A stretch of 64,000 bases of DNA from Heterodontus francisci (taxonomy: Eukaryota), in NCBI RefSeq assembly GCF_036365525.1, contig NC_090395.1, positions 61,331,805-61,395,804 on the forward strand, in the 5' to 3' direction. This document shows positions 5,014-33,164 of the stretch, piece by piece. The notes beneath the pieces were generated by a model. It was not told the DNA's origin. It did no database searches and saw only the letters and a program-made list of their open reading frames with translations. Made by a program: the position numbers and the translations under genes. The first letter of the stretch is position 1; the number at the start of each line of letters is the position of its first letter.

Positions 5014-6198
5014 TAGGCCACATATAGACCTGGTTGGGGAAGTGACAGCGGCATTAGGCCCTTTGAATATGCAAATACGGGTTCTAACATCTGTTTCAGG
5101 CATGGGCTCCAGATGACTTTTTTTGCTCAAAACAATATGGTGAATGGCACACTCCAGCGCGTGTTTCCTGTCTGCTATATTGGAGGCTTAGGCACCCGTT
5201 TAGCGCCAGGAAAAACATCAGGTGCCATCTAATTTCTCGGCCAAACTTTCATTGTGCTACTTTAGTTTAATTTGCAGCAAAGCCCTGAATCACTGTACAA
5301 CTACCTTCCCTGCATTTTAAAGGAGGCATTTTATGAGCTGCACAAAACAATCTTTCAGGGAGCTTCGTTTGAACCAAAGGTGGTACTTTCTCATGGCTCT
5401 TTGAAAGTGAGATACTTATCGAATAAACAAAAGCTGGATTTTAAACCTTTTTTTAAAAAATGAGGAATATACTTCCTTTCTGCGAAATTACTTATCGGCA
5501 GGACATATGAAAACAGGATAAAGTCATGACCGTACAGGAAAAGTAAACACTGGATTAAGTATTCTGTGGAAGCATAAGGAAGCCTTTGAAGGTCTGTTCT
5601 TCTGCAGTGCATACTTTATAACCTGTTCAATACTTCTGAGAAATGATCCAGTCACAAAGAGATATCCAAAAGACCAAGGTCTTTTACCTAAAAAAGCCCG
5701 TTAACTTTTTATGCTCATGAAGATTGTAGAATCAAAGAATGTTTGAAATGCCAACTTTGCTGGTGTTCTTGGGTTTCAATTGTGTGTTGTAAAAGCTTCT
5801 TCACAATGAGCTATAGCTGCCTCCTCCAAGATTATATTGTCCTTCAGGTATAATGAGAACTCGGATGTCGAAAAAAATGATCTGTAGTATGATGAAGCAA
5901 AGAGTTTTTCTTATCTAGCATAGTACATTTCATCAACAGAGAACTCCAGCACAGTATGAATTTGGAATATCAGAGTTAATGGTGCAAACTGACCAAAAAG
6001 TCAGTAATTACGGACCAAGAACGGTTACACATTCTTCACAGAACTTGCACAGTTGCAACAAATTATAAATTGTAACAGTGCATTTTATACATTTCATTAT
6101 ACTAATTAGAGACTGTTACTAGGTGAAGGTTTTACAAAATAAAGTGACGCTCACCTGAATCAGATATCTGAAAAATAAGGGCCTGCATGTCATGGAGG

Positions 6199-6759: not shown

Positions 6760-6992
6760 ATTTATATAGCATCTTCAATGCAGTTAAGTGTTCTGAAGTG
6801 CTTCACAACAGGGTAATCAGCCAAAAATTGGCACTGAGAGTAAAAAGGAGACATTAGGACAAGTGACCAAAAGCTTGGTCAAAGAGGTAGATTTTAAGAA
6901 GAGTTTTAAAAGAGAAAAGTGGAGAGATGGAGAGATTTAGGGAGGAAATACCAGACTTTAATGTTGAGATGGCTGAAGACATGACCATCAGT
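6760..6992 (-). mobile_element. L2 LINE 3' fragment
   Basis: Tail atttatatagc and the motif gaccaaaagcttggtcaaagaggtag shared with 18240 and 31120. Confidence 0.65.
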
Positions 6993-8821: not shown

Positions 8822-9055
8822 TCTGGTTGTTGCCCGTGCCACGTGATAGCGAAGCGAGGAATAGGGAGAGAGAGGAGTTGAACACGTGGCTGCAGGGATG
8901 GTGCAGGAGGGAGGGTTTTGGTTTCCTGGATAACTGGGGCTCTTTCTGGGGTAGGTGGGACCTCTACAAACAGGATGGTCTTCACCTGAACCAGAGGGGT
9001 ACCAATATCCTGGGGGGGGAGATTTTCTAGTGCTCTTCGGGGGGGTTTAAACTAA
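8822..9055 (+). pseudogene. CR1 ORF1 C-terminus (SGNH esterase-like)
   Basis: LLPVPR...LNTWLQGWCRREGFGFLDNWGSFWGRWDLYKQDGLHLN, with an apparent frameshift in the G-run at about 9012-9019. Confidence 0.85.
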
Positions 9056-11947: not shown

Positions 11948-13281
11948 GTCAGATGGTTTCACAGGTCGGCGCAACATCGAGGGCCAAAGGGCCTGTACTG
12001 CGCTGTAATGTTCTAATTCTAAGTTCCATATTCAGACAAGGTCATGTAAATACAGAAGTTTTGGTTTCTGAAAGAAACCTAAGGGATCAGCCACTGTAGG
12101 CCTGGGATGTGATTTTACTCAATGCTCAATTATCTTAAGCAATCTTATCAGACTGAAACTGAATGATATCTGCCAAGTTCAGAGGCCCGCGGAGCTCCAA
12201 AATAAGCTACAGGCACCAGTTTAAAATGTTAAACTAAATGGTGTTGATGGCCTCTAATAAAAAGACTTTAATGGCAATTTGTAACTGGAGTTGTGGAAAG
12301 CTAATGACCCAGACAAGACTGAAACTGAAAATTAGGAAGGCCTTTAAATTTAAACGAAGAGTGTTGGTGGAAGAAGGGCAGGAATTTTTGAGCGGATCCA
12401 GAACTTTAGACCAGGGATCTGCTCACATTGCTCTTCTTTTGGGTTCTCTGCCCTCATTTGCTGTCAGAGAGAGATGCACCCAGCTAGTGTTTACTGCAGC
12501 AATGCAAATGTGCAGATTCATATTGCATGGAGTCATCCCTCCTCAAGTCTGTCGTTTGTACCCTTCCCTTTACTCATGCAAACTACTCTAGGATTAAAGT
12601 AACAATTTTTCTGTTGGTCTTAGAGACAAGGGGTAACTGGTTTCTTAAAGAAGAACTGCATGACTATCGTCCTTCAAAAGCTTCAGGTAGCTGTAATTTT
12701 TGTTTGCCTAGGGCAACCTTGAAAAAATTCTCGAACCAGTGAGAGTTTAAGCTTCATTTTGCGGATTCCTAAGGAAGTGCATTTCCAGTAAGAAAACTTT
12801 GGAAAAGTGTTCAAAGGAATGTGTCAATATTAATTTATCAGCAGCGTTATCTGAGTGAAATAAAAATAAAAGCTTTTGATATACTTTACATTGCACAGTA
12901 CTCCAGTAGTAAAAGAACTCCCAGCGTTACAATGTTACCAGTTATATAATGCATATTTTCAATTCCAGTCATTCCTATCCATAATAACCCTTCAATTAAG
13001 GAACAGGTTTACTCTCCCTTACATCAGGTCAACATCACCGGTCAATAACGTGAACTGGAACCAGCAACTCAAACTCAGAAATGGTTTCAGAACAAGGCTC
13101 TTGTGATCCACCTCCTCTTTACTTGTGCCCCTTAGCAGATATGATTTCTCATATTTTTGGGATCTGTCTTCACAGACCTTTGGATTTGGGATGTTGCTGG
13201 AGCTACATATAGGCCTGTCAGCAGCAAAGCCATGGTGCTCACTCCTGACCTCTTAGAAAGCTGCCCACGAAGATCTAGTGA

Positions 13282-14754: not shown

Positions 14755-15365
14755 TAAAGACACGGCGTACAAAAGCAAGGAAGTTATGCCAAATGTTTAT
14801 AAAACACTGGTTAGGTCCCAGCTGGAGTATTGTTTTCAATTCTGAGTACCACACTTTAGGAAGGATGGCAAGACCTTGGAGAGGGTGCAGAAGAGATTTA
14901 CTAGGTTGGTACCAGAGAAGAAAGATTTCAGTTATATGGAGAGAGTGGGGAAACTGGGTATGTTCTACTCAGATCAGTGAAGGATAAGAGGGGATTTGAT
15001 AGAGATGATAAAAATCATGACTGGTTTTGACAGAGTAAATTAGGAGAAACTGTTTCAAATGGCAGAAGGGTCAGTAACCAGAAGATACAGACTTAAGGTG
15101 ATTGGCCAAAGAACTAGAGGTGACATGATGAAAGAAAGAATTTACACCAATGATCTGGAATGCATTGTCTCAGAGCCTGGAGGAACCAGATTCAACAATG
15201 AGCTTCAGTAAGGAAATTAGATAAATACTTGAAGGGAAAGCATTTACAGGGCTATAGAGAAAGAGCAAGGGAAGACGACTAATTGGATAGCTCTTTCAAA
15301 AAGCCAGCACCGGCTCGATGGGCCGAGCGATCTCCTGCTGTGCTGTATCAATCTATGATTGTATG
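14755..15365 (+). mobile_element. CR1 3' fragment immediately upstream of SLRP coding exon 1
   Basis: tataaaacactggttaggtcccagctggagtattg (YKTLVRxxLEYC), gggccgagcg...ctgtgctgta terminus and tctatgatt tail. Confidence 0.8.
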
Positions 15366-15481
15366 TGGCACAATATTTTTGTAATAGTTTAATAAAAGTA
15401 AACTGCATTTCTCATTTGCAGAATTAAAATATTTCCGAACACCTTTTCCAAGGATCTCCTGAAACTATGCATTCTATACAA

Positions 15482-16103
15482 ATGGATGTCAAGTTTGTTC
15501 ACGCCCTAATAACATTAGTCTCTATTGTACAGTGTACAAATGGCTAGCCTGACTACGGTGGGATACCAGTTTTATTTAACAACGAAGAAGGAGATCCCAC
15601 GGTGTTGTCACTCAGTGGAAGAATCACTTCTGACTACTTCAGATACTTTGGTATTGAAGATTATCCTTTAGAATGTGACTGTCTTATCCATTGGCCCACT
15701 GCAATGTTTTGTGATAACAGGGCACTGCTGTATGTACCATTGATGTTGCCATTTAGAAGCCAGTATCTGTACATCCAAGGCAATTGCATCCAGCACCTTC
15801 CTGAAGGGGGTTTCAAGAACACGACTGCCCTAAAATGGATGATCTTGGACAGAAACAACATTAGTAGTAAGAATATTGGTAAAGACGTGTTTTGTAGTCT
15901 TAACCAACTTGAAAATCTGTACATGAATTACAATAACTTGATAGAGGTACCAGCACAACTACCTCGCAGCTTAAAACAGCTGAGACTGGCACACAATAGA
16001 TTTAAAAAGCTCTCCCAAGAACCATTTGAAAACCTAGAGAATTTAGTGATGTTACTGCTTCATGGCAATCAACTGACAACAATCAATGGCGGTGATATGA
16101 AAG
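15482..16103 (+). CDS. SLRP pseudogene coding exon 1 (signal peptide, Cys cap, LRR1-5), with in-frame TAG at 15545-15547
   Basis: Acceptor tttctcatttgcag ends at 15421. ATG 15482 (another in-frame ATG at 15467) gives MDVKFVHALITLVSIVQCTNG*PDYGGIP..., in frame with ORF 15602-16156. LRRs QYLYIQGN, KWMILDRN, ENLYMNYN, KQLRLAHN, VMLLLHGN. Donor AAG|gtgaaa after 16103. Confidence 0.88.
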
Positions 16104-16339
16104 GTGAAATTAATTTGTTTAATATTAATTTATCACAGAGTTTACTTCACTCTTAATAAAATGTGTAGGTCATTCTCATCACAAGTAAATGGACTTTTGC
16201 AACAAAAAAAAAGCTCTCAATTGAAATAGACTCTCATCAAAAATTGACTCTCCCATTCTCATTGATTAACTAAAATGAATTGGTTAAGCAATCTATTTTA
16301 AATAGAGTGCAACAACAAAAACAACTTGTATTTATAGAG

Positions 16340-17233
16340 ACAAGAAATGCTGGAACCACTCAGCAGGTCTGGCAGCATCTGTGAAAAGAGAAGCAGAGTT
16401 AACATTTCGGGTCAGTGACCCTTCTTCGGAACTGACAAACATTAGAAAAGTCACAGGTTAGAAGCAAGAGAGGTGGGGGTGGGGCAAGAGACAACAAAGG
16501 AGGAGGTGTAGATTGGACAAGGCCACATAGCTGACCAAAAGTTCATGGAACAAAGGCAAACAATATGTTTGCGGAACATCTCCGCTCAGTCCGCAAGCAG
16601 GACCCTGAGCTTCCAGTTGCTTGCCATTTCAACACTCCCCCCTGCTCACATCTCTGTCCTGGGATTGCTGCAGTGTTCCAGTGAACATCAACGCAAGCTC
16701 GAGGAACAGCATCTCATCTACCGATTAGGCACACTACAGCCTGGCGGACTGAACATCGAATTCAATAATTTCAGAGCATGACAGCCCCCCATTTTACTTT
16801 CATTTTTAGTTATTTTTTCTTTTACATTTATTTCATTTCATCTTAGTTTGTTCAGTTTGCTTACCCACTTTTTTTTCAGGTTTGCACTTGCTGCTATTCA
16901 ATATTCAGTCCGTTAACACCTAATCTGTACTAATGCTTTGTCTTTCAACACACCATTAACATATTGTTTGCCTTTGCTCCATGACCTTTTGGTCAGCTAT
17001 GTGGCCTTGTCCAATCTACACCTTCTCCTTTGTTATCTCTTGCCCCACCCCCACCTCACTTGCTTATAACCTGTGACTTTTCTAATATTTGTCAGTTCCG
17101 AAGAAGGGTCACTGACCCGAAATGTTAACTCTGCTTCTCTTTCCACAGATGCTGCCAGACCTGCTGAGTGGTCCTAGCATTTCTTGTTTTTATTTCAGAT
17201 TTCCAGCATCTGCAGTATTTTGCTTTTATTTTA
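16340..17233 (+). mobile_element. Penelope-like element, 5'-truncated with inverted terminal repeat and GIY-YIG C-terminus
   Basis: EHLRSVRKQDPELPVACHFN...HISVLGLLQCSSEHQRKLEEQHLIYRLGTLQPGGLNIEF* (16570-16781). Inverted arms about 16340-16569 and 16958-17187. 14-bp TSD ttgtatttatagag at 16326-16339 and 17234-17247. Confidence 0.9.
17094..17130 (+). ncRNA. Minimal hammerhead-ribozyme-like motif in the Penelope terminal repeat
   Basis: AGTT-CCGAAGA-A-GGGTC act GACCC-GAAA-TGTT-AACT: helix I, core (CUGANGA with U>C), helix II, GAAA, short helix III. Mirror copy on - at 16397-16433. Confidence 0.6.
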
Positions 17234-17292
17234 TTGTATTTATAGAGCATCTTCATCATATTAAAACGTCTCAAGCCGCTGCACATGGGGCA

Positions 17293-18186
17293 TGTCATGC
17301 TAGGCCCCCACCTGCCAAGAATGAGGCACTTTAAATTTTGTCATGAACATTGATCTTTAACTGTTGCTGGAATGAGGAAATGACTTGTTAAATAGATCAG
17401 CCGTGGCTGGAAAAATACATTTGCATATTAACAGACAGTGCTAGGGACCATTTCCTGACACATTCAACTCACAATGGACCTTGATCACCAGATATTGTGG
17501 GTAAGAGGAGCATTCCAGAGACTGCTAAGGTGATACAATCCAGGACTGGTTAGACCAACTGGTCATATGACTAACCGGCTGCTCCAGGGTTTATTGAATT
17601 GGCCACAGAGAGTTTGAACTCAGGAACACTGTTTGTTCCTGGATTGAGAAGATCTCTCTTGTCTGTTCCCAACTCGTTCTCATGGAACTCCAAATACAAT
17701 GAAGACACATGAACCCCAAGAGAGAAAAGTCTCCTACAGCGAACAAGGCTTAAGAATAATACTGGGCCCCAACGAAAAGCAAGATCTTCCTACAATCAAG
17801 AACTCTACAGTGAGCTGGAGGAACTGTAACAAAAACTCTTCAGCTATTGCCTCAAATTTTTCCACTTTATTTTTCTACTGCTCTCTTCTGTCTCTATTTG
17901 CATGCGTGTATCCCGTATGCATGCTAGCGTGGGCATGTCGTGTACCCATAGGCATCAACTGAATTAGAGTTTAAGTTAAAGTTCAATAAATTTCAATCGT
18001 TCTTCTTTAAACCTAAGAAAACCTGTTTGTGCTGGTTTCTTTGCCTTATAATTGGAAAGTGGTGAACAAGGATTCACCAAGGGGGAGCTAAAAACACGGT
18101 GTGTTTAAAAATTAAACCCTGTTACAGTAAGACCAGGTGAAGACTGAAAGGGAACCCCTAGACCTCTTTCGCACCTGGTCGTAACA
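17293..18186 (+). mobile_element. Solo LTR related to the Gypsy element at 52977-58248
   Basis: TGTCATG...GTAACA termini, AATAAA at about 17985, 5-bp TSD gggca (17288-17292, 18187-18191), and collinear similarity to the reverse complement of 57435-58248. Confidence 0.9.
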
Positions 18187-19349
18187 GGGCATTATAAAGC
18201 AAAATATGAGACCGAGCCACATAAGGAGATATTAGGGCAGATGACCAAAAGCTTGGTCAAAGAGGTAGGTTTTATGAAATGTCTCAAAGGAGGAAAGGAG
18301 AGGCAGAGAGGTATAGGGAGCAAATTGCAGAGCTGAGGGCCTTGGCAGCTGAAGGCTCGGCCACCAACGATGGAGCAATTAAAACCGGAGATGCATATGA
18401 GGCCTGAATTAGAGGAGTGCAGATATCTCGGAGGGTTGTGCGGCTGGAGGAGATTACACAGATAGGGAGGGGCGAGGTCATGGAAGGATTTGAAAACAAG
18501 GGTGAGGATTTTAAAATTAAGTCATTGCTTAACTGGGAGCCAGTGTAGTTCAGCGAGCACAGGGGTGATGGGAAAACGGGACTTGGTGTGAGTTAGGCCA
18601 CGGGCAGCAGAACTTTAAATGACCTCAAGTTTATGGAGGGTAGAACATGGAAAGACAGCCAGGAATGCCCAGTAAAATACAAGCATTCGTAAATTAATCA
18701 TCGATTAGGGATCTGGGAGGTAAAATAATTACAGAAATGTTATAATCAACTAATATACAAGCACTGTACAACTTCACAGGATCTGAATGGCACACAAATG
18801 TAAAATTAGTCATCATCACATTATTAGATTACTTCAAATACAAACACAAGCAAATTCAAAAAGTAGCTGCATTAAGGCTTAGAGCAAGGTTTGCTGATTA
18901 AGTAGAGTGGGAGAGGACAGAAAACAGAATTGCAGCAACAGCGAGAGACCCTGCAAGATCTTCTATAATGCAAACAGAGGGATGGAATTCAAGCAGCAAA
19001 GGCACAAGGACAAGACAGCTGAATAAAGCAGAACTTTAATATGTGATGTTTAAATAACCCGAGATACCAAAGACCTTGTTAATATAGTTAATTATGATCC
19101 AACTATCCTACCGTTACATTTGCTGCAGCACACAGGGGGTTTGGATTTCTGGTCAGTTCAAATAAACAATGCTCATTTTCTTCAATATTCTACTTGTGCA
19201 TGTTGGTGAATTAAAATGACACTATAGCTAATTCTGTTTGTGAATCTTGTGTCTTAAGCACCTTGAATAAACACCAGTCTCTTCCACACTACCTGTTTAT
19301 TGTTTGTTGCTAGATCTCTTTCCAATCAGTCATATATTCTAGAAGGTTC

Positions 19350-20050
19350 TTCTTTGCTGTACTTGACTAGGTTATTCTTGGCTTTCCATCGTTCCCTATT
19401 CCATCGGAGAACTATTTCAGCGCATACTGGGGTATTCTGCATTTTTGACAAGTAATCAACCAACCAAGGAGTTTTTGCTTCACAACTTGGCTTACTAACA
19501 GCAGTTTTGTTCTTTTACTGGCTTTCTGGTTTCACAGATTATCTGTACAGCTGATCCTGAGTCAATTGATGCCAAATGTGTCAAGATTTTCTATGTAGAC
19601 TTTGCCATTGTCTAGAGTTGTGTCATGTAGCCAGGTGGATAACATATTGCTATTGTATAGTTTGATTTTTTTGTTTTGGTTTGCTATTTCTGCAAAATTT
19701 ATTTAGCTTGTCGAAAGCAGTACCCATTTTGCCAACTTTATCTGTTGACTCTCCTCCAATGTAGCATTGCTGCATATGGTATGTACACAATAAATGGAGG
19801 TCTATGTTCTGTGTCTCTAAGCTTGATGTTAAAATTAGTATCATCTGTTCCAACTGTCATGTTTTTTTCTCTCCTGAGATATTTTTAGTCAAACCCATTA
19901 CCCAATTTGTTAATGATGTCTGTTTTTCTTTATATTTCTGGCAATAGTGTTACAACAACCACAAAATCTAGATCATCCACTGTTTGCTCCATCTTTTCTC
20001 TGTTTGTGCACATTAGCTGGTCTCCAACGACTCTAAATGTCAGACTCACT
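19350..20050 (-). mobile_element. Degenerate RTE-like LINE fragment
   Basis: Minus-strand peptide KVGKMGTAFDKL resembles the RTE RIGKAxxAFxxL motif; highly decayed. Confidence 0.4.
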
Positions 20051-20789
20051 AGACACATTCCTGCTTTAATTTTAGCCTCCCCCCCACTGCCCTATCTTCC
20101 ACCATAACAAATTACCCATTCTAATAAGTTCCTAAATGATATTTTTTGCTTTCTGCGGAAATTTATATTAGTGTAAAATTACCACAGTACAAGTCCTTCT
20201 TGGTTATCAAAGTGTACTATAAAATAGATGTTAATGATGAAGTTGATATGTGGTTTATTCATGGTTTTGCCAGGTTATGAAAAATGTCAATGCTTTCTAT
20301 ATGTGACTCTGAGTTGCAGTTAATGACTGAATAATGAGGCAGATTGCAGGCAAAAGGATCACTTTAAATTACTGGGAAAGCACTGGAGCCAAAGCAAAAT
20401 AATGTTTGGAATTAGATGGCGTTTTCAGCACATTAATGTAACTAGGATCACAGGTCATTGACCGAATGGAGTCTGAGAGCTTAATCACATTAGCTCTGTT
20501 AATTTACGGCTGGTTTCCTTTTCATTTTCTTATTTTGGTTTCTCTCATTTTCTTCCTACCCTTTCTTAAGGGAGTGACTTAAGCTAAATTGTAGTTCAAG
20601 CAGCAACAGTAGCTTTCTATTACCTTGTCTAAATGACCACTCTTCATATAGAAGACTAGGTAGTGAGTGTCTGCTGGCTACCCAATCATGGAGGATATAG
20701 TGGATTAACCTGTCCTTATGACCAGATATCTACACATACTTGTGGTAAAGGCCATCAAGAGTGGGAATCTTTGGTGATTTTGTTTTGTC

Positions 20790-21215
20790 AGTTTGTCTCC
20801 ATTGTAGCACTCTTGCCTGAGTCACCAGGTTATAGGTTCAAAGATCACTCTAGGACTTGGGTAGGTCATCTAAGCTGCCACTTCAGTGTAGTATTGAGGG
20901 AATGCTACACTGTCACAGCTATCTTTTGGATAAGGTCTTTCTAGATGAATGTAGAAAATCAAACAGCATTATCTGATAAAGAGCAGGGGACTTTCTACTG
21001 ACGTTCAATCCAACATTTATCCCTCAATCAATAAAATAGATTAACTTGTCATTTGTCTCAATTGCTGCTTATGAGATCTTTCGGTGTCCAAATTGGTTGC
21101 TGCAAATACTTGCATAACAATAGTGGCTGCACATCAAAATAAAATCAATCCATTGATTTTAAAGGACTTTGCAATGCTCCATGGCTTGATAAGATGCTCT
21201 ATTAACGCAAGCGCT
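20790..21215 (+). mobile_element. Deu-domain-type SINE (SacSINE1-like), decayed
   Basis: tRNA-like head (gcactcttgcctgagtca...ggttcaa), ccaacatttatccctcaa core and L2-like tail atgctctattaacgcaag. Confidence 0.55.
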
Positions 21216-22236
21216 TTCTTTCATTTCTTCCTACTCTAGTGGCACTGAGGTTTGCAGCATTCCCGTTGTTGCCCAACTGATATTGGGTAACCAAGGAGCA
21301 GAACTTCTGATCTTCTTGGGCTGTGTAGTTTATTACCACATTTCGTGATCAATATACATAGAGCCATGGGGAACAAGATGCTTGATTGACATTTCTAAAG
21401 CAAAGCACATGATTTCACTATTTCAAGGGAAGACAACAAGATAAGTAAACTCCACCAATGGTATGCCTCATTTTTTTTTTAAACTTTAAAGTCATCTGTA
21501 GAATCACTTGTTCTTTTAAAGGCAATTAGATTGGGGATCCCTCAATGGCTTACAGAGTTTATCTATTGAATGATGAGCCTTAGAAACAAAGAAGGCCCCA
21601 AGTTCATTTACTGGTCTGTGCTGAGTTAGATCATCTCAGGTGCAATAGTAAGGACACTATAATTGGCTTCACAGCTACTGGAAAAGAAGTGGGACATTGT
21701 CCAGGATTCCCACCCAGATAACAATCCAGCAAGCCTTGATGGAAATGCATGTGAAGACAGAAATTGATTCATATGTGTTGTCCTCTCTGTTTAAATGACC
21801 TAAAAAAAAAACTTACTGTCAATATCCATATATGAATAATAACTATTTGAGGTACCATGAGGTGCCCGACACTTATGGGACTGTATCCAACAAGGAGAAA
21901 ACACCTTCATGTCAGGAGTGGAGGAGAAAAAAAAAATAAGAGAAAAGATGCTTTTTTCATAGGACATGAAAATGTTCTAGTTACAAGTTATGTAGCTTAC
22001 ATAAAGATGAATAGATGTTAAAAGCTCCAGAGAAGAAAGTTCAATGTTATTGTAACTATGACTGACTGAGGTGATTTTCCAGCAGAAGTCTTCACCTATA
22101 TTTTCAGCCTTTACATTTATTCACAACTGCCTTGATTCCATTATGTTTGAAGTCTATCAGATGACTGAAGTAAGATAAATGGAGCAATACGTTCAATTCT
22201 GAATAGTAACTCATATTTCCCTTTATACCATCACAG

Positions 22237-22551
22237 GATTGAAGTCTCTTATTCACCTGGATTTAAGTTATCAATTGACTGTGTTCCCCAAGAATCTTCC
22301 AGTTACAATCCAGCAACTCTACTGCACCAACAATTTTTTCGAAACGCTTACAGAAGATTATTTTGCACAGTTTCATAGACTCCTTTACCTGCGGTTGAGT
22401 CATAATAAATTTACCATCAAGGGTCTAGCACCAAATAGTTTCAACATCTCCACCCTGATTGAACTGGGCTTGTCCTACAACAATTTGACCTCCATTCCAC
22501 ATGTCCATAAAAACCTCCGATATCACTGATTTGATTGGCTTCCATATAGAG
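22237..22551 (+). CDS. SLRP pseudogene coding exon 2 (LRR6-10), 3' end disrupted by a micro-inversion
   Basis: Acceptor tttccctttataccatcacag ends at 22236, and phase 1 matches exon 1 (G+GA=Gly). Reads LKSLIHLDLSY-QL...LYLRLSHN...IELGLSYNNL...KNLRY. Inverting 22525-22550 restores LYMEANQIS followed by G|ataaga (degenerate gtaaga donor). Confidence 0.88.
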
Positions 22552-22961
22552 ATAAGAAACTTTTATATGTTGCAAAACCCCTTTTTCTGGGAATTTTCTT
22601 GGGCCTTCTCCTGCACCATCACCATAATTTTGGAAGAAGTTTAGCAAAAACTCTGTTGCCTGTCCCCAGTACATTAAATGTACAAATCCTCATTCTTGTC
22701 TTTAGAATCCTGCACAATCTCATCCCAATTTATTTTTGCAACCTCATAATCTGTCCTGGACCTGATGGACATCTTGATGACCAAGGTGGCAAGATTTCCT
22801 ACCTTGATCCTATTTTCTGCAATCTTCCCCACATTCCTCTGCCTCTCCACTTCCATTTTGACCTTTAAAAACCTTCCCAAAACCATTTTTATTCAACAAG
22901 CTTTCAGATGTCTCCCTCCATTGCTCAGTGACCATTTCCTTACTTTCTGTAGAGCACCCAA

Positions 22962-23215
22962 TAGGGAATTCAGGAGAAACTTCTTTATCCAGACAGTGTT
23001 AGCTTGTGGAACTTGCTACTGCAAGGCGTAGTTGAGGTGACTAGTATAGATGCATTTAAGGCGAAACTAGATAAACGCATTAAGGGGAAAGGAATCGTAG
23101 TATAAGTTGATGGGGTTAGATGAAGAAGGTTGGGAGCAGGCTCATGTGGACCGTAAACACTGGCATCATGGACCTGTTGGGCCAAGTAGCCTGTTCACTG
23201 TGCTGTAAGTACTAC
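22962..23215 (+). mobile_element. CR1 3' end fragment
   Basis: EFRRNFFIQ..W, gcatttaaggcgaaactagat and a gggcc...cctgtt...ctgtgctgta terminus. Confidence 0.75.
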
Positions 23216-23368
23216 ATAATACCTTGGTTCATATATATATATATATATATATATGAACCAAGGTATTATGTAGTACTTACAGCACAGTGAACAGGCTACT
23301 TGGCCCAACAGGTCCATGATGCCAGTGTTTACGGTCCACATGAGCCTGCTCCCAACCTTCTTCATCTA
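23117..23368. repeat. Perfect 252-bp palindrome centred on (AT)12
   Basis: 23117-23230 is the exact reverse complement of 23255-23368, and the central 23231-23254 AT run is self-complementary. Confidence 0.95.
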
Positions 23369-23560
23369 TATACATATATACATATACATATACACACATA
23401 CTAATTTGAATTGCTTTAATCAAGGATTAAAATAATTTGCCCGTATGAAGTAAATATTAGTCAATTATGATGTTTAAAAAGATGTTAAGCTGCCTGATAT
23501 AGAATCACAGACACCAGGGGGGTAATTATGTTCTCAGTGGATGAGCCTCCCTCAGGATCA

Positions 23561-24040
23561 GAGAATCACAGAATCCTTACAGCGCAGAAGGAGGCCATTC
23601 GGCCCATCGTGTCTGTACTGGCTTTCTTAAAGAAGAACTCCCTTAGTTCCATTGCCCTGCCTTCTCCCCATAACCCTGCATATTCTTCCCTTTCATATAA
23701 CTGTCTAATTCCCTTTTGAATGCCTCAATTGAACCTGCCTCCACCACATTCTCAGGCAGCACATTCCAGACCTTAACCACTCGCTGTGTGAAAAAGTTCC
23801 TCCTCATGTCATTTTTGTTTCTCTTACCAAATACTTTAAATCTGTGCCCTCTCCTTCTTGATTCCTTCATAAGTGGGAACAGTTTCCCTCCATCTACTCC
23901 GTCCAGACCCCACGTGATTTTGAATACCTCTATCAAATCACCTCTCAGCCCTCTCCTCTCCAAGGAAAACAGCCCCAACCTCTCCAATCCATCCTCACAA
24001 CCGAAATTCCTCATCCCTGGAACCACCCTCGCAAATTCCT
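23561..24040 (-). mobile_element. CR1 3' fragment
   Basis: ORF 23643-24050 reads LGLFSLERRGLRGDLIEVFKI...FFTQRVVKVWN...AFKRELD. Confidence 0.9.
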
Positions 24041-24519
24041 CCCTACACATACATAATCACAGTTTTATCATGGTGATTTCGTGCTACAGAAGGTGAATAA
24101 TCAAAACTCAGAGAACTCATTACCACACACTGACTGACCAGTTAAAAAACTGAGACTGTCTTACTCTGTCTGCAACTGTTACAGAGTCACATTGTCACGA
24201 ACAAGTTAAGTTAAATATTCACTCCTTGCAGATTCCAATTCATACTATATAAAAGCTTCCTGGAAGCAGTGAATGAAGTCAGTTTATATAATAGAGATGT
24301 GCAACAGCTGCCAACTTTAGTCTGGATGTTAAAATTTGGACTTTATACCAACCCTTCAATTTGTGTTCTCAGCAATGAGCCAGTTTCCATAGGAAACTGA
24401 TGCCCAGATTTTCCTCACCACATTGTTAGATTTTTGGGTGGATAGGGGCCGACAATGGGCAGAAGTCCATGGAATTTTGCTTGCTTTGCAACCGAACATA
24501 CCCTCCAGTCAGTGGGAGG

Positions 24520-24651
24520 GAATTTGATAACAGGTTATCGACCTGAAATATTCACCATTTTTCTCACCACAGATGCTGCCTGACCCATGGAGTGTTTCCA
24601 GTGTTTTCAGTTTTTATTTCAGATTTCCAGCATCTGTAGTATTGTGCTTTT
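24520..24651 (+). mobile_element. Penelope terminal repeat fragment (decayed)
   Basis: gacctgaaa...ccacagatgctgcctgacc...tttatttcagatttccagcatctg... Confidence 0.65.
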
Positions 24652-24660
24652 GACTTAATT

Positions 24661-25203
24661 GGGCTGGATTCTATCGAGCCCTCGACTTCGGGATCCGTGG
24701 CAGCGGAGGGGTGGAGGAGGTCAAATGAGCTTCATGGGCATGTAGGGGATGGTGGGAAGGGTTATAGTTTGATGTTTGTGCACTTTGGAGTGTTGTGGGA
24801 GAGGTCAAATGGTAAAGGTAAGTGTCCTGTGGGGGAAAAGGGCAAAACATTAATTTAATTATTATTGGGTGGGGGGGGGGGGGGGGCGGTTGTGAGAGGG
24901 GAAAAAGATGTTTTTATTTATTTTCAATAACTCTTTCTTTAAATATTTAAATTTGCCATTAGGGCTAACAGCCCATTAAAAATGCCGTCAGCGCCTGCGC
25001 GCAGGCAGTTAACGCTATTGCCGGGGATGGACAGCCCGCCACCTCCATGTGATCGGGGAGGAAGGGGGGGGGGGGGGGGGCGGGGTGCCTACCCAGGCTA
25101 TTTAAATGAGCCACCGTGCTTGGAATTGCAGCTGCTCTTTGGCATGCGGCTCGCGCGGGCGGGCTGCCATTTTCTTTGCCCGCCAACTTATAGAATTCAG
25201 CCC
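24661..25203. mobile_element. Harbinger-type MITE
   Basis: TIRs gggctggattcta / tagaattcagccc (12 of 13 match), GC-rich ends and poly-G runs. Confidence 0.75.
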
Positions 25204-26254
25204 AATATTTCTATAGTGAATAAGAAAGCAAGCATAGATTAATTCAAAAATAACATCCTATAAAATGGCTGCTGTCTTTTCTCACAATAGAGAAGTAAAA
25301 ATAAAACAGTGAAGGATAAACTGTGAATATAATATAAAGGCACAGTAACAGTAGGCATGAACAGTACAAAATCATTACATATTAATATTCATCTAAGATG
25401 GCACCAAAAGGGTTAAATTAGTTACAACTTTGTACATTGGCAAAGATAATTGGACTTGGCTCAAGCAAACTGGGCTATGATACAACATGGTAAATTGCAA
25501 CAGGCTAAGATTATTTAGACCCATCTATTTCATGCTGAATATATTTGTGACTTATCCCTTAGTATGAGATGGCACTCCAACAACAATACATATGCATACA
25601 AAAGAGTTTCATCAAGTTATATTTGGTGTCTATTTAACTAAATAATAACAAAAAACCTATATAGTGACTTCCACAAACTGTGTATTCCAAACTGCATTAT
25701 AGCCAATGGAGGTACAAAAAAATCTAGAGAGAATAGCTTGGGATATTGGGAACATTATCAGTAGTGAGCTCAGATCAGTACAGCTAGCACTTAATTTGCC
25801 ATTGAAGGCAGGCCTGATTTCCGTGACAGTGCAGTTAGGCAAGTGCCATGCTTTTGGTTTTGCTGGGACAGGTTGTCAGGAGCAGACAGAACATTCAGCT
25901 AGCTTGTACTGACCAGTGATGAATTTTATAATCACTGGCCTGAATGAACCTTCAACTGCCACCAGTGAGAATTTGATGGGCAAAACATAAAGTCACAAAC
26001 CATTAATCTGGAGTTGAGGAAACCACTGCATTTTATAATGCAAAGAATTACCCAGTACCAGCAGCCTTAGGATATATTCCAGAACCATTTCAAACAGATT
26101 GATAATAAACCAACACAGCACCAGGTGTCTTCAGGCAAAAATAACACTTCCATCTTGATTCCAATAGAAATAAAAGGGAAACCTTATGTTGGAACTCTGA
26201 AATGAAAACTGAAGAGGCTGGGAATGCAAAGCAGGTCAGTCAGTATATGAAAGA

Positions 26255-26610
26255 AGAAGAACTGGCACTTATATAGTGTTTTCACTACCTTGGGATGTCC
26301 CAAAGGGCATCACAGTTAATGAGTCACTTTTGAAGTGTCATCACTGTTGTAATTTAGGGAAAGCCAATTTTCATACAACAGGGCCCCACAAGCATCACCG
26401 AGATAAATAGCCAGATAATCTGTTTTAGTAATGTCACTTGAGGGATTAACAGGTTGGTTTAACATCCCATCCATCAGCGCACCTGACAGCACAGCACTCC
26501 CTTGGTACTGCATTGATGTGTCAGCCTAGATTATGTGCTCAAGTCACTGGAGTGGGATTCAAAACCACAACCTCTGACTCAGAGGCAAAAGGGGTACCAC
26601 TCGGCTGAGG
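26255..26610 (-). mobile_element. Deu-domain-type SINE
   Basis: Collinear with 29717-30141 (cacctgacagcacagcactccct...tactgca...tcagcctagatt...ggagtggga). Confidence 0.65.
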
Positions 26611-27708
26611 TAAACAAAGATAGATTAATGTTTCAGATGGAACCTATCATTCCAGCATGTTCTGTTTCTAATTCCAATCAAGAATCTACTGCTTTGAAAT
26701 TTCCGTGTGAATACAAAGGGCTGAGTTTTCCAAATCTGGGTCGTTTGCGAGGCACCTCACCCACAGTCAGCATGTGGTAGAAAATTCCAAGTGTTTTGCT
26801 CACACTCTTTCATCCATTTGGATGGTAAATGGCTGGCAACATAGCCTCAATTCTTTGATTCATGCCGACAGTGGACAAGTTTACCTGAACATTGGCGTAG
26901 AGTCGGTAAATGTAGACTAAAGTGCAATAGAGGAAATATAGGAAAATAACAGAAACAAAAGTAAAACACAGGAGTGTTGGAGAAAGCTACCAAAATATTT
27001 CTTCAACCACACTTGTGCCAGAAGATTATTTTATAAAATAATCTACGCAGTCAGCAATTTAAAATTGATTCACTTGCCAGTTGTTCCTTTTGTCCCCCTC
27101 TCCCAAGCTGTTGACCCCTCCCCTAGGTTCATCTCCCCCAAGCCCAAGATCTTTGGAACTCAACTTGAGACACCAGCCTTGAACACTTGCTACTTCCTGC
27201 CCTCTGGATCAATATAAAAGAATAAAATGGCAATGCTTGGACTTCCTCAAATTGATTTTTCCCACCATTGAAGGGTTGAGGTTGAAATCAATTTGCATAC
27301 AGTTGTTGGCACTTCGTGGGCTCACAAGAATAAAGATCATTTGAGATTGAGTTCAAGACAGTAATTTACCTCAAGGGGTTCAGATAACATAATAACCCAG
27401 AAAGCTGGAGCTATTTATGTCTGCTTCCCTTGCCTAGATTACAGCCTTGAAATTACTCAATATGCCTTGTGATGAAGACAGTGTTAATTCCTACAAGCAG
27501 TCAGCAAATTGTCTGAGCTCTATAGGCTTTGGAGGCCACTGATGTATAGGCTGCCCTCCCAATATGGGGCTTTCCCCCAACAGGACCATTTACTTGGTCC
27601 TTGGTCCTACTGGGGCGCTTAGTCTTTTGTCCAGGCAGACTGTACTCATGCAGCTTTCCAATACATATTCCCAATAGGTGAAGCCATGCTGGATGCGCAG
27701 AAGTGGAA

Positions 27709-27905
27709 TATAGAATCTTGCATCACAGAAGGAGATTGGCCCATCCTACCTGTGCCATCTCTTTGAAAAAGCTACCAAATAAGTCTCACTTCCCTGCTGT
27801 TTCTTGATACCCTTTCAATTTTCTCCATTTCAAATATTTTCTCTCACTCAAGTATTTATCCAATTCCCTTTTGAAAGTTACCATTGAATTTGCTTCCATC
27901 ACACT
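27709..27905 (-). mobile_element. CR1 3' end fragment
   Basis: cacagaaggag...ggcccatc and aagtatttatccaattcccttttgaaag motifs. Confidence 0.6.
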
Positions 27906-29487
27906 TTGTACTTACTTTTCCTAATTCAATGTGCAAAAACAGGCTCAGATGTTGAACAGAGTGTATCACAGCTGTGTGCAGGTCAACGGGCCAGTTGAAA
28001 AAAAAAAACTATAAAGCTGTTGTTTTTAGATAATGAAAACACATTTTTTCTAAATTTGCTCCCATATCCAAAATTGGCAGTGGAAGAAGAAACAAGATAA
28101 ATAAAAGATTTAAAACATATATTTTTGTGGAGGAACAGTACATAAAAAAGGTAGATAAAATTAAAAGCAATGTCTTTTAAGTGAATTATTTTAGTTCTGT
28201 TGAACTAATACTCCAGTAACTATACAGTGGAGCTCCATCATCCCAACTTCCTGAATCACAGTCAATTGTTTTGCAAGTGAATGCTATGTGTGACTTGCCA
28301 AAGTACACAATGGTGTTTTATTATTTTGATTGAATGCAGATGGTGCAAGGGGTCTTACTGATTCTGGGGAGAAGCAATGCGAGACTCTCAGTTTGTTTTA
28401 ACGCCTGTGGCATTTAACTCTACTGCATCATCAAACCCAGTTTCAAAAATGACCAAAAGATCTATTGAACCTCTTCCCCTCAACCACTCCCCACTGAGAC
28501 TCTTTGTAGACCAACTTGCTGGATATTTACCTGTTCAGGTGATCTCTCTCAAAACATTTACATTTGAACCCCTAGGAGAGTTGTAAGCATGTATAGATTC
28601 TCTCTTCTGGATGGGAGAATTGTCATTTGAGACCAGAGTATAAATGAGGTATTACCTGACTGGAGCCCATTTTGCATCTACCAGTCTGAGCCCACAGCTT
28701 GGTATAAATGTAGCAAGAAGTACATCATATTTCTTGTATGAATTGTATTCTACTTGTTTTCCTTCCTGTGCTTAGAGGGTCACTCTACCTTACTGCTAAG
28801 ATTCTCACCTATCCACTAAAGGATCCATTCCATTATATCGCCATACTCCTGAGATTGGATTATTACTCCATTATTATTAGTTACTTCCACAATACACCAA
28901 AGAAAGACAGACTTGCATTTATATAGCACCTGACGACTTCATGATGTCTCAAAGCGCTTTGCAGCCAACAACGTTCCTTTGAAGTCGTCAATGATGTACT
29001 GTAGGAGTTTATTTTATCACAGAACCCCATTATAAACAAAATAATTAGAAATATTTACAGCTTATGTAGAAACAGTTCCAAATCAGAAAGTAATACAACC
29101 ATAATTCACAATAAAAGCCAGTTCACTGAGTTTAGAAAGGATTCGTGGTAAAACAATCTGAGTACCAGAAAGTCTGTTGATTGGCCACATGCTTCTCTAC
29201 CTCATTCATTTCCAGTATGTACATAGTTATTTTTCCATTCAGTTTAAATTCCCCTCAAGCTAGTAACCACAGTTTCTTTTTGAAATGCAGAGTTTGGAAA
29301 GGTCGTGTAGTTGAAACACTTCCAGATTACTTTTTTTTTTTAGCATGTTACAGACATAAAGAGTAATAAAAAATGCCACATTTTAATATGAGAAGCTGCC
29401 ATTCCCATGGAGGAATAATTTTTCAATCAGTTTCAAATACATGCAAGTACATATTTACCCTTTTATATATTTTGTGTCTGCAAAATT

Positions 29488-30225
29488 GGGCTTTTGGATG
29501 AGATATTAAACTGAGGACCTATCTGCCAACTCAGATGCATTTAGAAAAAAAAATCCATGGGACCATGGAGAGAAGAGCAGTTGGTGTCCTGGTCAACATT
29601 TCTCTCTAAACATGACTAAAACAGAATATCTGGCTGGTTATTTCATTTCTGTTTATGTGACCTTGCTGTGCGCAAATTGGTTGTTATATTCTCCTACATT
29701 TAAAATGATTACATTTATAGAGCATCTTCCATGCTCTCAGGGCATCTTAAAACGCATTACAGCGAATGAAGTGTAGTCACTGTTGTAATGTGGGAAACAC
29801 GGCAGCCAATTTGCACACAGCAAACTCCCACAAACAGCAATGTGATAATGAACAGATCATTTGTTTTTGTGATGTTGATTGAGGGATAAATAATGTCCAG
29901 GACACTGGGGAGAACGCCCCTGCTCTTCTTCAAAATAGTGCAATGGGATATTTTACATCCACCATAGAAAACAGACAGGGCTTCAGTTTAATAACTCACC
30001 CAAAAGATGGCACCTCCGACAGTACAGCACTCCTTCAGTACTGCACTGGGGTATCAGCCTAGATTTTGGAGTGGACTGGGACTTGAACCCACAACCTGCT
30101 GGCTCAGATGAGAGTGCTACCAACTAAGCCACAGCTGACAACAACAACTACATTTTGCAAATTACTTTATTGATCATGTAACATTGTGGGATGTCTGTGA
30201 TAGCGAAACAGAGCTATATAAAAGG
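29488..30225. mobile_element. Two nested Deu-domain-type SINEs (minus copy about 29717-30141 inside a plus copy)
   Basis: Plus copy body 29488-29716 resumes at about 30149 with its L2-like tail (gctatataaa). The minus copy has a tRNA head (ggacttgaaccc) and is flanked by tacattt. Confidence 0.65.
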
Positions 30226-31039
30226 AACTTAAATAGAAATTATAGCACAGATACAGACCATTCAGGCCAATTGGTCTATGTCTGCATAAACTTCCTCCCA
30301 CCCGATTTCATCTCAACCCATCAGCAAAACCTTCTATTCCTTTATCCTTTGTATTTTTCTAGTTTTGCTTTAAATGTATCAATGCTATTCGCCACAACTA
30401 CCCCGTGTAGTAGCAGCTTCCGTATTCTAACCAAGAATGGTAACAAAGTTTCTCCTGAATTCCTTATTGGATTGATTAGTGACTATCTTAGATGTATGAC
30501 CCCTAGATTCAAACCCCTCCACAAATGGAAAGTTCTTTCTTTCTAAGAGTTAAATACAAATAAGCAAATGCTGCCCGACCTGGGCGTACTGTATATTATA
30601 ACTTGATACAAGGCAGTTCAGACGCAGAACAAATATATTCCAGTGATCACTGCCAGAGTTGCTTGGATAAGGGTCATGAACAAGGATGGAAATATATACT
30701 GGTCCTTAAGTCATTTAATTCAAATGTTTCACAAAAGCAAACCATTTGGATTCAATTCTATAAAAGCATTCTACACAAACATTATAAAATGTTACAGCCT
30801 AAACCCTAGAACTAAAGCTAACAATGTGCAGACTCTCCAAGATTGTTGGACTCTCCAGGACATTGCTGATGACCGTAGCATCCTGGAATAATTCAGATGT
30901 TTCTTTGATGTAAATTGATCTGTGTTCAAGCAATGATGCCCGCAACTGCAATGATATGTTTGCAGAGCATTATACCCCAAGAAGCAAATCCCTTCTCTTA
31001 GAGACTTTACAAAAGGACATTCAATGTTATATTTCAACA

Positions 31040-31230
31040 AAGCCCAAGCTCTGGAATATCCTCCCTACACCTCTCCACCTCACTTTCCCCCTTTACAATG
31101 CTCCTCAAAGCCTATCTCTTTGACCAAGCTTTTGGTCATTTGACCGAACATCTCCTTTTGTCGCTCCTGTAAAGCACCTTGGGATGTTTTATTACGTTAA
31201 AGATGCTATATAAATATAAGTTGTTATTGT
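31040..31230 (+). mobile_element. L2 LINE 3' end
   Basis: ctctttgaccaagcttttggtca...gtaaagcaccttgggatg...gctatataaatataagttgtt tail. Confidence 0.7.
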
Positions 31231-31449
31231 TCTCTCCTGAATGGACTGACTCATGCTGCACACATGCCAATCATCAGATTTTATGCTGACAGCATGCTGG
31301 GAAGTTGTCAGTTAGTTAAAGTTTGCTGAGAAGAATCAGCCCAGACTAGGCCCTCTCTCATCAATGCCACTCATTTCTCTCCCATCACACTCCTCTCTCC
31401 CTCTTAGTCCCTCATTACTGTTCCGCTGCTAATGGACTAGAGTAAAAGA

Positions 31450-31692
31450 AGAACTTGAAGTACTTTTGAAGGGTAGTTACTATCATGTTGTAGGAAATGC
31501 ATCCAATCTGGGCACAGCAAGGTCCCGCAAACAGCAATGCAATAATGACCAGATTATTTGCTTTTAGGTGTTGGTTGAGAGATAAATATTGGCCAGGACA
31601 CCACGGAAAACTCCTCTGCTTTCAATAGTGCCATGGGATCTTTTACTTCAACTGAGAGGGTGGGCGAGGCCTTGGTTTAAATATCTCATCCG
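31450..31692 (-). mobile_element. Deu-domain-type SINE fragment
   Basis: cacagcaaggtccc...aaacagcaatg...ataaatattggccaggacacc...aatagtgccatgggatctttta. Confidence 0.6.
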
Positions 31693-33012
31693 ATCCCCAA
31701 TGCCACTCTTAGAACAAATGCTATCTACCCTGGCCACTATAGGTGGAAAATCTCACGAGAACAGGAGTTTCCAGCTACAAAAGGGATAGAGCTAGGATCA
31801 TTGTCATTAGCTCATGCATTCCACAAGAACAGAAAGTGTTTTGAGATTCAGTCAGAAAGCCAATATTTGCTGATAAAAATCAGTGCAAATAGAGTCCTCT
31901 CATCACAACGTTGCTCCTCTCTCTTCCCTGTCCTACTCTTAACTGAATCTGCCTGCTAATCTACTGGATTTGGGACCTACTTTCCTAAACACCACACTTA
32001 GCATTAATGGTAATCATCTTGGCTGCTGTATACTCTCGAGGTAACAAATAGTAGTAAGTTGGGCAAGGTACGAGAGAGCTACTAGTATCCAATCATTGTC
32101 CTTTCATAAAGCAACCAGAATCACGTACAAATAGAAATGAGTCGATGTTTTATTTGTCTCACATCCACTTCCTAAATCAATACTTTTTCTAGTACTGTAC
32201 AATGTGCCTAATATTTATAACAATCCTACTAGAACATTAAATGTATTTAAATATATTTAATGTAATTTTCCTGTGTTTTTTTAAAACCAGGACAGGGCCT
32301 TGTTATCACAGCTGTTTGCTAACAAACCATATAATATTACTCTGAGTAAAAAGTAACAATATTTAGAATAGACAGAAAAGTTAGGAAAACCTAAAGAGAC
32401 AGAATATACGGGGTTGACATTAACTTTGCGACATGCGATCTGATCATTGCCACAGTAAAAGTTCCCGAGATCTTGGAGGTGCATCGTTACTGCAACTTTA
32501 GTGTTGCAACTAAGTGATTTCCTTGTCATAGCAATGTTCAAGCTGCAGTATAATTCAGAATGGAGCAAGCAGGAGACCTCCCAGAGGAAGCAATCTCATA
32601 CTATTTGGGTGGACACTGCATGAAACTGTCACCCCAATGCAGTGTCAATCCTAGTTAAAAAAGAGCCAGTAGGTCCACTGAAGACTGATATCTGCAGCAC
32701 CAATGTACCCTTAGAAATCTATGTTAAATATGATCAAAAAGTGTCAAACATCAGCAAACACCCACAAATTCATTTCCTCGGACTTTATTGGATTAACTTC
32801 ATTAGAAGTGCAGCAGAAACCCCCAAGGAAATTCAAGGCCTTGGAACATTCCCTCAGAGAAAGTAGACAGTAGTGATCATTCTGATGTTAGTGAAGGCAT
32901 GGTGTGATGAAAATAGTGTCTTCTCATGTTTATAGTTTTCCGTAGGAATCAAGTTTGATAAACCAGTCTTTGTTCATGTCCATAGTAATTTCTTATATGT
33001 TCTTTCACCCAG

Positions 33013-33164
33013 AGTTCAATGTAACCAGTTTCTGTCGCAAAGTAAGCCCAGTGGATTACTCCCAGTTGAGGATTCTCCGGTTGGATGGGAACAAACTAAC
33101 CTCCAGCCAAATTCCCAGTGACTGAATGTGGTGTTTAAGAGCAATTACTGAACTAATTGTGTAG
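33013..33164 (+). CDS. SLRP pseudogene terminal coding exon (ear repeat and last LRR), with in-frame TGA at 33123-33125
   Basis: Acceptor ttctttcacccag ends at 33012. Translation (E)[48 protein letters not shown] is a typical class II SLRP C-terminus. Too short to appear in the ORF track. Confidence 0.9.

Follow-up and report, generated by a model that had tools for sequence, protein, structure and literature searches.

The window analysed here is a stretch of 64,000 nucleotides from the horn shark Heterodontus francisci. It contains three exons that join into a 367-codon class II SLRP frame, which we assign from the tree and the gene order to LumL (lumican-like). The exons, introns and damaged sites are as follows, in window coordinates.

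15422 to 16103, plus strand: first coding exon, with a 45-nt 5' UTR, the ATG at 15467, the signal peptide, the N-terminal cysteine cap and the first LRRs (Pfam LRR_8, E=1.4e-19; 75% to the basking-shark orthologue)
15545 to 15547, plus strand: premature TAG at codon 27, directly after the signal peptide and 556 nt before the next exon junction (Tyr in orthologues)
15662 to 15664, plus strand: codon for the first CX3CXCX9C cap cysteine reads TAT (Tyr), from the ortholog alignment
16104 to 22236, plus strand: intron 1, 6,133 nt, interrupting the LRR body
22237 to 22551, plus strand: second coding exon in its original extent, with LRRs and the start of the LRRCE cap (76% to the orthologue; single copy at the DNA level)
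22269 to 22274, plus strand: site where 3 nt were lost in frame between 22271 and 22272, removing the Asn of LDLSYNQL (Asn in 113/113 bony-fish orthologues)
22521 to 22554, no strand assigned: micro-inversion with a 26-nt spacer (22525-22550) flanked by the perfect 4-nt inverted arms TATC (22521-24) and GATA (22551-54)
22552 to 33012, plus strand: intron 2, 10,461 nt, acceptor intact and donor gone
33013 to 33164, plus strand: last coding exon, with the remainder of the LRRCE cap and the natural stop TAG at 33162-64 (86% to the orthologue)
33123 to 33125, plus strand: premature TGA at codon 355, ahead of the last LRRCE cysteine (Trp in 113/113 bony-fish orthologues)

Exons 1, 2 and 3 matched the intact orthologue beyond chance, with E=1e-112, 8e-46 and 2.5e-20, respectively. 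The AG acceptor of exon 1 lies at 15420-21 and the exon ends at a phase-1 donor GT (16104-05). The original prediction had described an in-frame three-exon splice of about 362 aa without frameshift. This was borne out: the read-through has zero frameshifts and comprises 367 aa from the ATG at 15467 or 362 aa from a second ATG at 15482. Its leader reached a Kyte-Doolittle value of 2.39 at residue 11 in a simple hydropathy test, used in place of a dedicated signal-peptide predictor. Pfam LRR_8 was found in exons 1 and 2, and the full-length alignment also gave a tandem LRR body. A match of exon 2 to Pfam ATLF stayed below the cutoff (17.6 against 27.4 bits) and was treated as chance. The read-through carries five N-X-S/T sites, and a product is expected only up to codon 26. 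When the intact orthologue was compared with solved structures, the best match was fibromodulin (5MX0, E=2.7e-86). At the point of intron 1, the FMOD, LUM, KERA, PRELP and OMD paralogues of H. francisci have one uninterrupted frame. A sturgeon gene model (P0002) shows a break at the same codon.

In the tree, the gene fell into a 14-row clade (support 100/99) with Callorhinchus XP_007897807, Danio NP_001018560 and Latimeria XP_006002319, which are labelled LumL in the supplement of Gil et al. 2025 (PMC11917481). The lungfish protein XP_043932869 was also inside this group, with LUM, FMOD, KERA, PRELP and OMD outside. The gene order on C25 is FMOD at 61.17 Mb, a decorin-like multi-exon gene at 61.25-61.27 Mb, LumL, and PRELP at 61.42 Mb, the decorin-like and PRELP labels being taken from sequence features, tree and order and not from named records. 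This agrees with the order fmod, dcn2, lumL, prelp of cluster D (Gil et al. 2025, PMC11917481). The tree and synteny checks proposed earlier confirmed a class II SLRP and placed it as LumL between dcn2 and prelp. Identity with lumican itself was rejected, since LUM and KERA are on C18 and the window gene is in a separate clade. With the described LumL (zebrafish LOC553753 = zgc:113307 and Callorhinchus XP_007897807; PMC6293640, PMC11917481), the gene shares the orthology group, the place in cluster D and the DYGG-P N-terminal signature. The class II SLRPs fibromodulin and lumican have the CX3CXCX9C cap, the LRR body and the LRRCE cap in common with LumL; in H. francisci, FMOD (C25) and LUM (C18) are separate genes, 42-45% identical, with open main exons and without an intron inside the LRR body. 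A processed pseudogene was rejected, as both introns are retained and the position is ancestral. The view of a dead, intron-containing, lumican-like class II SLRP gene in a cartilaginous fish is supported.

The lesions were then compared with the orthologues. The residue aligned with the TAG of codon 27 is Tyr in 4/5 other chondrichthyans and a gap in the fifth, and the source was therefore likely TAC or TAT; the predicted stop is present, whereas its proposed origin from CAG did not hold. The first cap position is Cys in 113/113 bony-fish orthologues and in all four other chondrichthyans compared, in agreement with the predicted loss of this cysteine. The cap motif fails in H. francisci and is present in basking shark, white shark, smooth-hound, elephant shark and zebrafish; this failure is decay. 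The missing Asn codon in LDLSY-QL and the TGA at 33123, thought likely to derive from TGG, were likewise confirmed by the invariant Asn and Trp of the bony fishes. The change of ELDL to ELGL, also counted as a lesion, was ruled out: basking shark, white shark, smooth-hound and bamboo shark all have ELGL, and it is therefore an older shark substitution and not decay. The changes of H. francisci LumL at conserved sites (4/15, against 5/49 in a bony-fish control) were not significantly enriched (p=0.20).

At the end of exon 2, the minus strand of 22525-22554 (30 nt) encodes YLYMEANQIS, with one exact match in the window, and the donor position 22552-53 reads AT. The inversion and donor loss at 22525-22553 were thus correctly recognised, but a third in-frame stop that the inversion creates (TGA, 22527-29) had been overlooked. 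No GTRAG donor was found in 22401-23000. Inversion and donor loss likely arose in a single step. If the polymerase switched templates between two imperfect 4-nt inverted arms, this would have flipped the 26-nt spacer and replaced the G of a presumed ancestral GT donor with sequence copied from the left arm; homogenised arms together with an inverted spacer are the outcome of template switching (PMC8604942). The site illustrates clearly how a single template switch, the likely cause here, can remove a splice donor and add a stop at the same time. Unlike the described LumL, the H. francisci copy is broken; the standard LRRCE motif with its ear repeat (PMC11917481) is common to both in the read-through once the inversion is turned back, but the locus as it stands does not make it.

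A public 'lumican-like' record of 452 aa, the NCBI model XP_067913696, covers this locus. The first 170 residues of the model are assembled from four separate segments, located at 996-1238, 5278-5406, about 6800-6886 and 12624-12686. As acceptor it uses the AG within the premature TAG itself, behind a weak pyrimidine tract, and the predicted protein lacks a hydrophobic leader (0.55 against 1.9-2.4), an intact cap and an LRRCE. That the locus still makes such a protein, by skipping the first stop through splicing and terminating at the inversion, would fit the existence of the model, its GT-AG style joins and its mostly in-frame LRRs; with the scattered N-terminal pieces, the borrowed acceptor and the missing leader, cap and LRRCE, we find this hardly credible. 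The record is a chimeric annotation that works around the stops.

The genome was searched with the intact orthologue. Among 54 matches, from 111 scored of 255 candidates in an assembly of 2,306 contigs that may be incomplete, only the three exons of the window reached 75-86%, the next best being 45%. The exon 2 DNA matched once in the genome, and an LRR motif scan of 160 kb before and 40 kb after the window found no other LumL exon. An intact co-orthologue, which would have spoken for a duplicate pseudogene, was not found, and within the limits of assembly and candidate scoring the gene is therefore a unitary pseudogene: it has three in-frame stops and a lost donor, no intact copy was detected, and relatives have open frames. 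A duplicate whose intact co-orthologue sits in an unassembled part of the genome is favoured by the fragmentation of the assembly and by the scoring of the best candidates only. However, the broken copy occupies the ancestral position between dcn2 and prelp and the flanking scan was empty, which makes a duplicate highly improbable.

Raw reads had been proposed as a check on the stops. Four DNA runs contained 102/102 sampled words of 15360-16320, which supports the exon 1 stretch in one individual, possibly the source of the assembly itself. No RNA data set was listed for the stretch, a blank that does not bear on expression, and three presumed RNA runs of the same sample contained almost none of these words. 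As DNA reads and assembly may share one source, the species could still have a working LumL, the lesions then being errors in the assembly or part of a rare null haplotype. We judge this very unlikely, as five lesions of four kinds are spread across 17.6 kb, none is a frameshift of the homopolymer type, the 26-nt inversion is clean, all sampled exon 1 words recur in the four read sets and a second haplotype copy was not found. No common rare-cutter site was found near the lesions.

According to Gil et al. 2025 (PMC11917481), LumL occurs only in elephant shark, coelacanth and ray-finned fishes; it is absent from tetrapods and was not found in the sampled elasmobranchs, from which one elasmobranch loss was inferred. 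Here, open frames were found in the basking shark (Cetorhinus XP_078402312, 368 aa), the white shark (Carcharodon XP_041051228) and Callorhinchus, the lamniform copies being predicted proteins. The basking-shark LumL keeps the signal peptide, the cap and the standard LRRCE motif. A remnant in the bamboo shark carries Tyr at codon 27 and Arg where the horn shark has its TGA, its LYMEANQI is uninverted, and other cysteines are gone; as it has neither the TAG, the TGA nor the inversion of the horn shark, it likely decayed independently. For bamboo shark and smooth-hound, the evidence consists of gene models that skip parts of the gene. No further shark LumL was among the best 150 matches in 1.84 billion representatives. 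Given an open frame in both basking and white shark and a bamboo-shark remnant that is broken differently, LumL was likely lost late and repeatedly, and not once in a common ancestor. The loss had been predicted to be lineage-specific. This holds for these lesions and not for the fate of the gene, which is also broken in the bamboo shark, did not turn up in the elasmobranch sample of Gil et al. 2025 and is missing in tetrapods. The elasmobranch loss is already published; its timing is new. The published history, inferred from four or five species, is corrected in that two lamniforms keep an open frame and two other orders have separately broken copies.

Regarding the timing, the end branch of H. 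francisci LumL in the tree is 0.11 long; measured from the same node, the lamniform copies are at 0.075-0.096. Compared with the basking shark, the LRR body differs at 53/339 sites and the leader at 14/27 (p=4e-5); the body has changed far less and was therefore long under constraint. The two stops caused by point mutation are compatible with neutral change of 4-6% (95% interval 0.5-20%), which the branch length limits to about 5%. With no frameshift, few stops, this branch length and the constraint on the body, LumL was probably lost late on the horn-shark branch, in line with the fairly recent loss suggested before.

Alternatively, LumL function could have been lost once, early in galeomorphs or elasmobranchs, for example by silencing, so that the open lamniform frames reflect slow decay and the horn-shark lesions late damage to a dead gene. 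Between basking and white shark, 8/22 LumL differences fall on teleost-invariant sites, which equals the blind expectation of 36% and exceeds the 8/77 between gar and bowfin (p=0.007; p=0.08 against two deeper controls). Moreover, 9/105 conserved sites, D291G among them, are altered in all four sharks, and the models are broken or partial in 3/5 sharks. In contrast, differences across orders avoid conserved sites (9/48, 11/54 and 10/47 against 36%, p=0.008-0.025; p=0.05 for two other pairs), the body is much better conserved than the leader, and the basking-shark protein retains its signal peptide, cap and LRRCE over its full length. An early death is unlikely on this balance. We conclude, with a probability of roughly 0.8, that the one LumL copy detected in the genome, which has three in-frame stops and lacks a splice donor, likely became defunct late in the horn-shark lineage and separately from the decay in the bamboo shark.

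It is possible, at somewhat short of even odds, that LumL is in parallel extinction across sharks, with private lesions in horn and bamboo shark, absence in catshark, whale shark and skates, and drift in basking and white shark despite a frame that is still open. If true, the single published elasmobranch loss would become several losses following a shared relaxation, and the sharks would form a natural series in which to ask what skeletal or skin tissue ceased to need LumL. Cone-opsin loss in galeomorph sharks (PMC11886822) likewise comprises several separate losses across the same orders; it has a proposed visual phenotype, whereas LumL is without a known one.

No function or phenotype of LumL (zgc:113307) was found for any species in the literature searched, and a carp 'lumican-like' (PMC5910588) could not be tied to LumL. 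In the H. francisci genome, the main exons of lumican, keratocan, fibromodulin, prolargin and osteomodulin are all open. The loss of a major matrix function, implied by the original prediction, is therefore not demonstrated. The importance of the loss appears limited because no LumL function or phenotype was found in that literature and these five class II paralogues look intact; they may have rendered LumL dispensable. Before it decayed, LumL likely encoded a secreted matrix protein that bound collagen, as fibromodulin and lumican do. Today, translation from the ATG at 15467 would end after 26 residues, which correspond to the signal peptide, and the transcript would be subject to nonsense-mediated decay. 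Human nephrocan (NPC), an untranscribed pseudogene (PMC6293640), is likewise a single-copy SLRP that died at its own locus in one lineage while relatives keep a live gene; it belongs to another SLRP class and another lineage, whereas LumL was apparently lost in several shark lineages.

The broken lumican-like gene (LumL, a class II SLRP gene) consists of three exons joined by phase 1 introns, which were found where the original prediction had placed them.

15422-16103 (+), exon 1, with ATG at 15467 and a second ATG at 15482
22237-22551 (+), exon 2
33013-33164 (+), exon 3

The exons splice without a frameshift, as had been claimed. When the inverted block of exon 2 was turned back, the read-through comprised 367 codons with premature stops at codon 27 (TAG at 15545) and codon 355 (TGA at 33123). 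The loss of a cysteine from the N-terminal cap, the missing Asn codon and the origin of the TGA from a Trp codon were confirmed by alignment, since each of these residues is kept in 113/113 bony-fish orthologues. The TAG itself stands, but its proposed origin from CAG does not, since the position holds Tyr in 4/5 other chondrichthyans. The change of ELDL to ELGL was dismissed as a lesion because ELGL is common to basking shark, white shark, smooth-hound and bamboo shark. As written, the frame ends after a 26-residue signal peptide, 556 nt ahead of the next exon junction, and by the general rule nonsense-mediated decay of the message is expected.

The inversion and the loss of the exon 2 donor were likewise recovered. 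On the minus strand, 22525-22554 translates as YLYMEANQIS, which is how the orthologues continue (LQYLYMEANQINE). The plus strand reads H and a stop, the inversion yielding TGA at 22527-29. The donor site at 22552-53 is AT, and no GTRAG donor was found within 22401-23000. Perfect 4-nt arms, TATC and GATA, flank the 26-nt inverted spacer. If exon 2 formerly ended G/GT, with the ancestral GT inferred, the right arm would have been GGTA, a 3/4 match to the left arm, and one template switch would explain why the spacer is flipped and why donor +1 changed from G to A. Template switching is described as giving arm homogenisation plus spacer inversion (PMC8604942).

Exon 1 matches, at 100% identity, a portion of XP_067913696, a 452-aa protein of Heterodontus francisci labelled lumican-like. 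This model is a chimeric annotation. Its first 170 residues are put together from four scattered stretches (996-1238, 5278-5406, about 6800-6886 and 12624-12686) spliced ahead of the dead LumL. The model joins at the AG of the premature TAG, terminates at the inversion-made stop and lacks the hydrophobic leader and the C-terminal cap (LRRCE). The piece 996-1238 looks like a DNA-transposon relic with a resemblance to Harbinger elements, and no Pfam match was obtained in 969-1397. It sits in a GC-rich stretch close to a Myb/SANT ORF. A Myb/SANT-like DNA-binding domain (PF13873, above cutoff) at 3525-3824 (minus strand) likely belongs to a DNA-transposon relic in the window's first 4 kb.

In a tree of 27 proteins, from which the bamboo-shark fragment was excluded as too partial, the read-through grouped with proteins of Callorhinchus, Latimeria, lungfish and ray-finned fishes (support 100/99), and the paralogues LUM, FMOD, KERA, PRELP and OMD fell outside this clade. 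The clade includes XP_007897807, NP_001018560 and XP_006002319, labelled LumL by Gil et al. 2025 (PMC11917481), where the order of cluster D is fmod-dcn2-lumL-prelp. On horn-shark contig C25, FMOD (61.17 Mb) is followed by a decorin-like multi-exon gene (61.25-61.27 Mb), LumL (61.35-61.36 Mb) and PRELP (61.42 Mb), in agreement with this order. Tree and synteny uphold the predicted lumican-like class II SLRP and place it as LumL, outside LUM. The decorin-like gene (61249200-61266800, minus strand), in which four exons with open frames were seen between FMOD and LumL, matches the chondrichthyan-only dcn2 described in the same study. LUM and KERA lie on contig C18 and OMD on C19, with the main exons open in each. 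The LRR-body intron of LumL is missing from all five horn-shark paralogues.

With the intact basking-shark orthologue as query, a search of the whole genome (6.0 Gb), in which 111 of 255 candidates were scored, gave 54 matches. Among these candidates only the window's three exons reached 75-86% identity, the next match having 45%, and no intact co-orthologue was found. Exon 2 DNA had one genome match. All 102 sampled words of 15360-16320 were present in four DNA runs, so the exon-1 lesions agree with the reads. Read support covers the exon 1 stretch and comes from one sample, which may be the assembly source. We conclude that the gene is a real unitary LumL pseudogene, an ordinary kind of object but new as a member.

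Two contigs of a close relative, from two runs of one sample and presumed to be RNA, match exon 1. One, of 1,063 nt, aligns to 15419-16325 with 37 mismatches and 4 gaps, and the other, of 578 nt, to 15619-16198. Both cross the exon 1 donor into the intron. Since this donor (16101-16109, AAG/GTGAAA, A at +5) is also weaker than the consensus, it is possibly a further splice defect. The longer contig fits from the exon 1 acceptor on and its 72 preceding letters do not, which suggests a spliced exon upstream of exon 1 in the relative.

Gil et al. (PMC11917481) report LumL from elephant shark, coelacanth and ray-finned fishes alone and infer that elasmobranchs and tetrapods lost it. Among the matches listed by our protein searches (one giving the best 120 of 375) and a cluster look-up were four other sharks with LumL.

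Basking shark: 368 aa; leader, cap and standard LRRCE present
White shark: open frame preceded by a spurious N-terminal extension; strict LRRCE pattern disrupted by one substitution
Smooth-hound: model without leader and last exon
Brownbanded bamboo shark: remnant of 199 aa; start Met, cap, middle LRRs and the first cysteine of the LRRCE missing

The lungfish protein XP_043932869 is a full-length LumL of 364 aa, putting the sarcopterygian loss later than the lungfish split.

The bamboo-shark remnant has 0/3 comparable horn-shark lesions (Tyr at 27, Arg at the TGA site, block uninverted). At positions 294 and 308 it has His and Gln, like the lamniform and smooth-hound proteins; in horn shark and elephant shark these positions hold Tyr and Arg. 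Horn sharks are usually placed outside the other three shark orders, which the LumL tree supports with only 81/72. Because the lesions are not shared and these residues fit the horn shark as outgroup, we infer that the two decays are separate. Of the 22 differences between basking and white shark, 8 fall on teleost-invariant sites, just as many as expected blindly; comparison with gar-bowfin gives p=0.007 and comparison with two deeper controls p=0.08. These copies may therefore also be drifting.

Horn and basking shark differ at 53/339 sites of the LRR body and 14/27 of the leader (p=4e-5). Inter-order shark differences fell on conserved sites in 9/48, 11/54 and 10/47 cases versus 36% expected (p=0.008-0.025), and in 11/47 for two more pairs (p=0.05). 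The less changed body and the avoidance of conserved sites indicate that LumL was constrained through much of its time in these sharks. From the common node, the branch ends (sums of printed tree lengths) are 0.11 changes per site for horn shark, 0.075 for basking shark and 0.096 for white shark. Two point-mutation stops would fit a neutral change of 4-6% per site (95% interval 0.5-20%), for which the branch length sets an upper limit near 5%. Conserved sites are not significantly overrepresented among the private horn-shark changes compared with the bony-fish control (4/15 versus 5/49, p=0.20), which counts against a late loss. Repeated late losses are likely in place of the single published one, and the horn-shark pseudogene and the lamniform open frames are useful for this revision. 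LUML is named by Costa et al. 2018 (PMC6293640), and an 'unknown class II SLRP' of ray-finned fish is noted in PMC7310474. In the open-access literature searched, we found no report of a horn-shark LumL pseudogene or of a shark LumL.

A nearly whole LINE ORF2 with endonuclease and reverse transcriptase (9031-11947, plus strand) ends about 3.5 kb before the LumL coding exon; a single frameshift near 10010-10056 and a single stop at 11057-59 interrupt it. At 54833-56533 (minus strand), SCAN and integrase zinc-binding domains belong to the fragmented relic of an LTR retrotransposon. Near LUM and KERA, about 1 kb at C18:12406550-12407512 holds two consecutive LRR-gene ORFs of 367-387 aa with a stop or a change of frame between them. 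These may represent ecm2L. On contig C42, three identical LRR-Ig exon copies spaced about 13.3 kb apart at 11.84-11.87 Mb were either triplicated recently in tandem or duplicated by the assembly.
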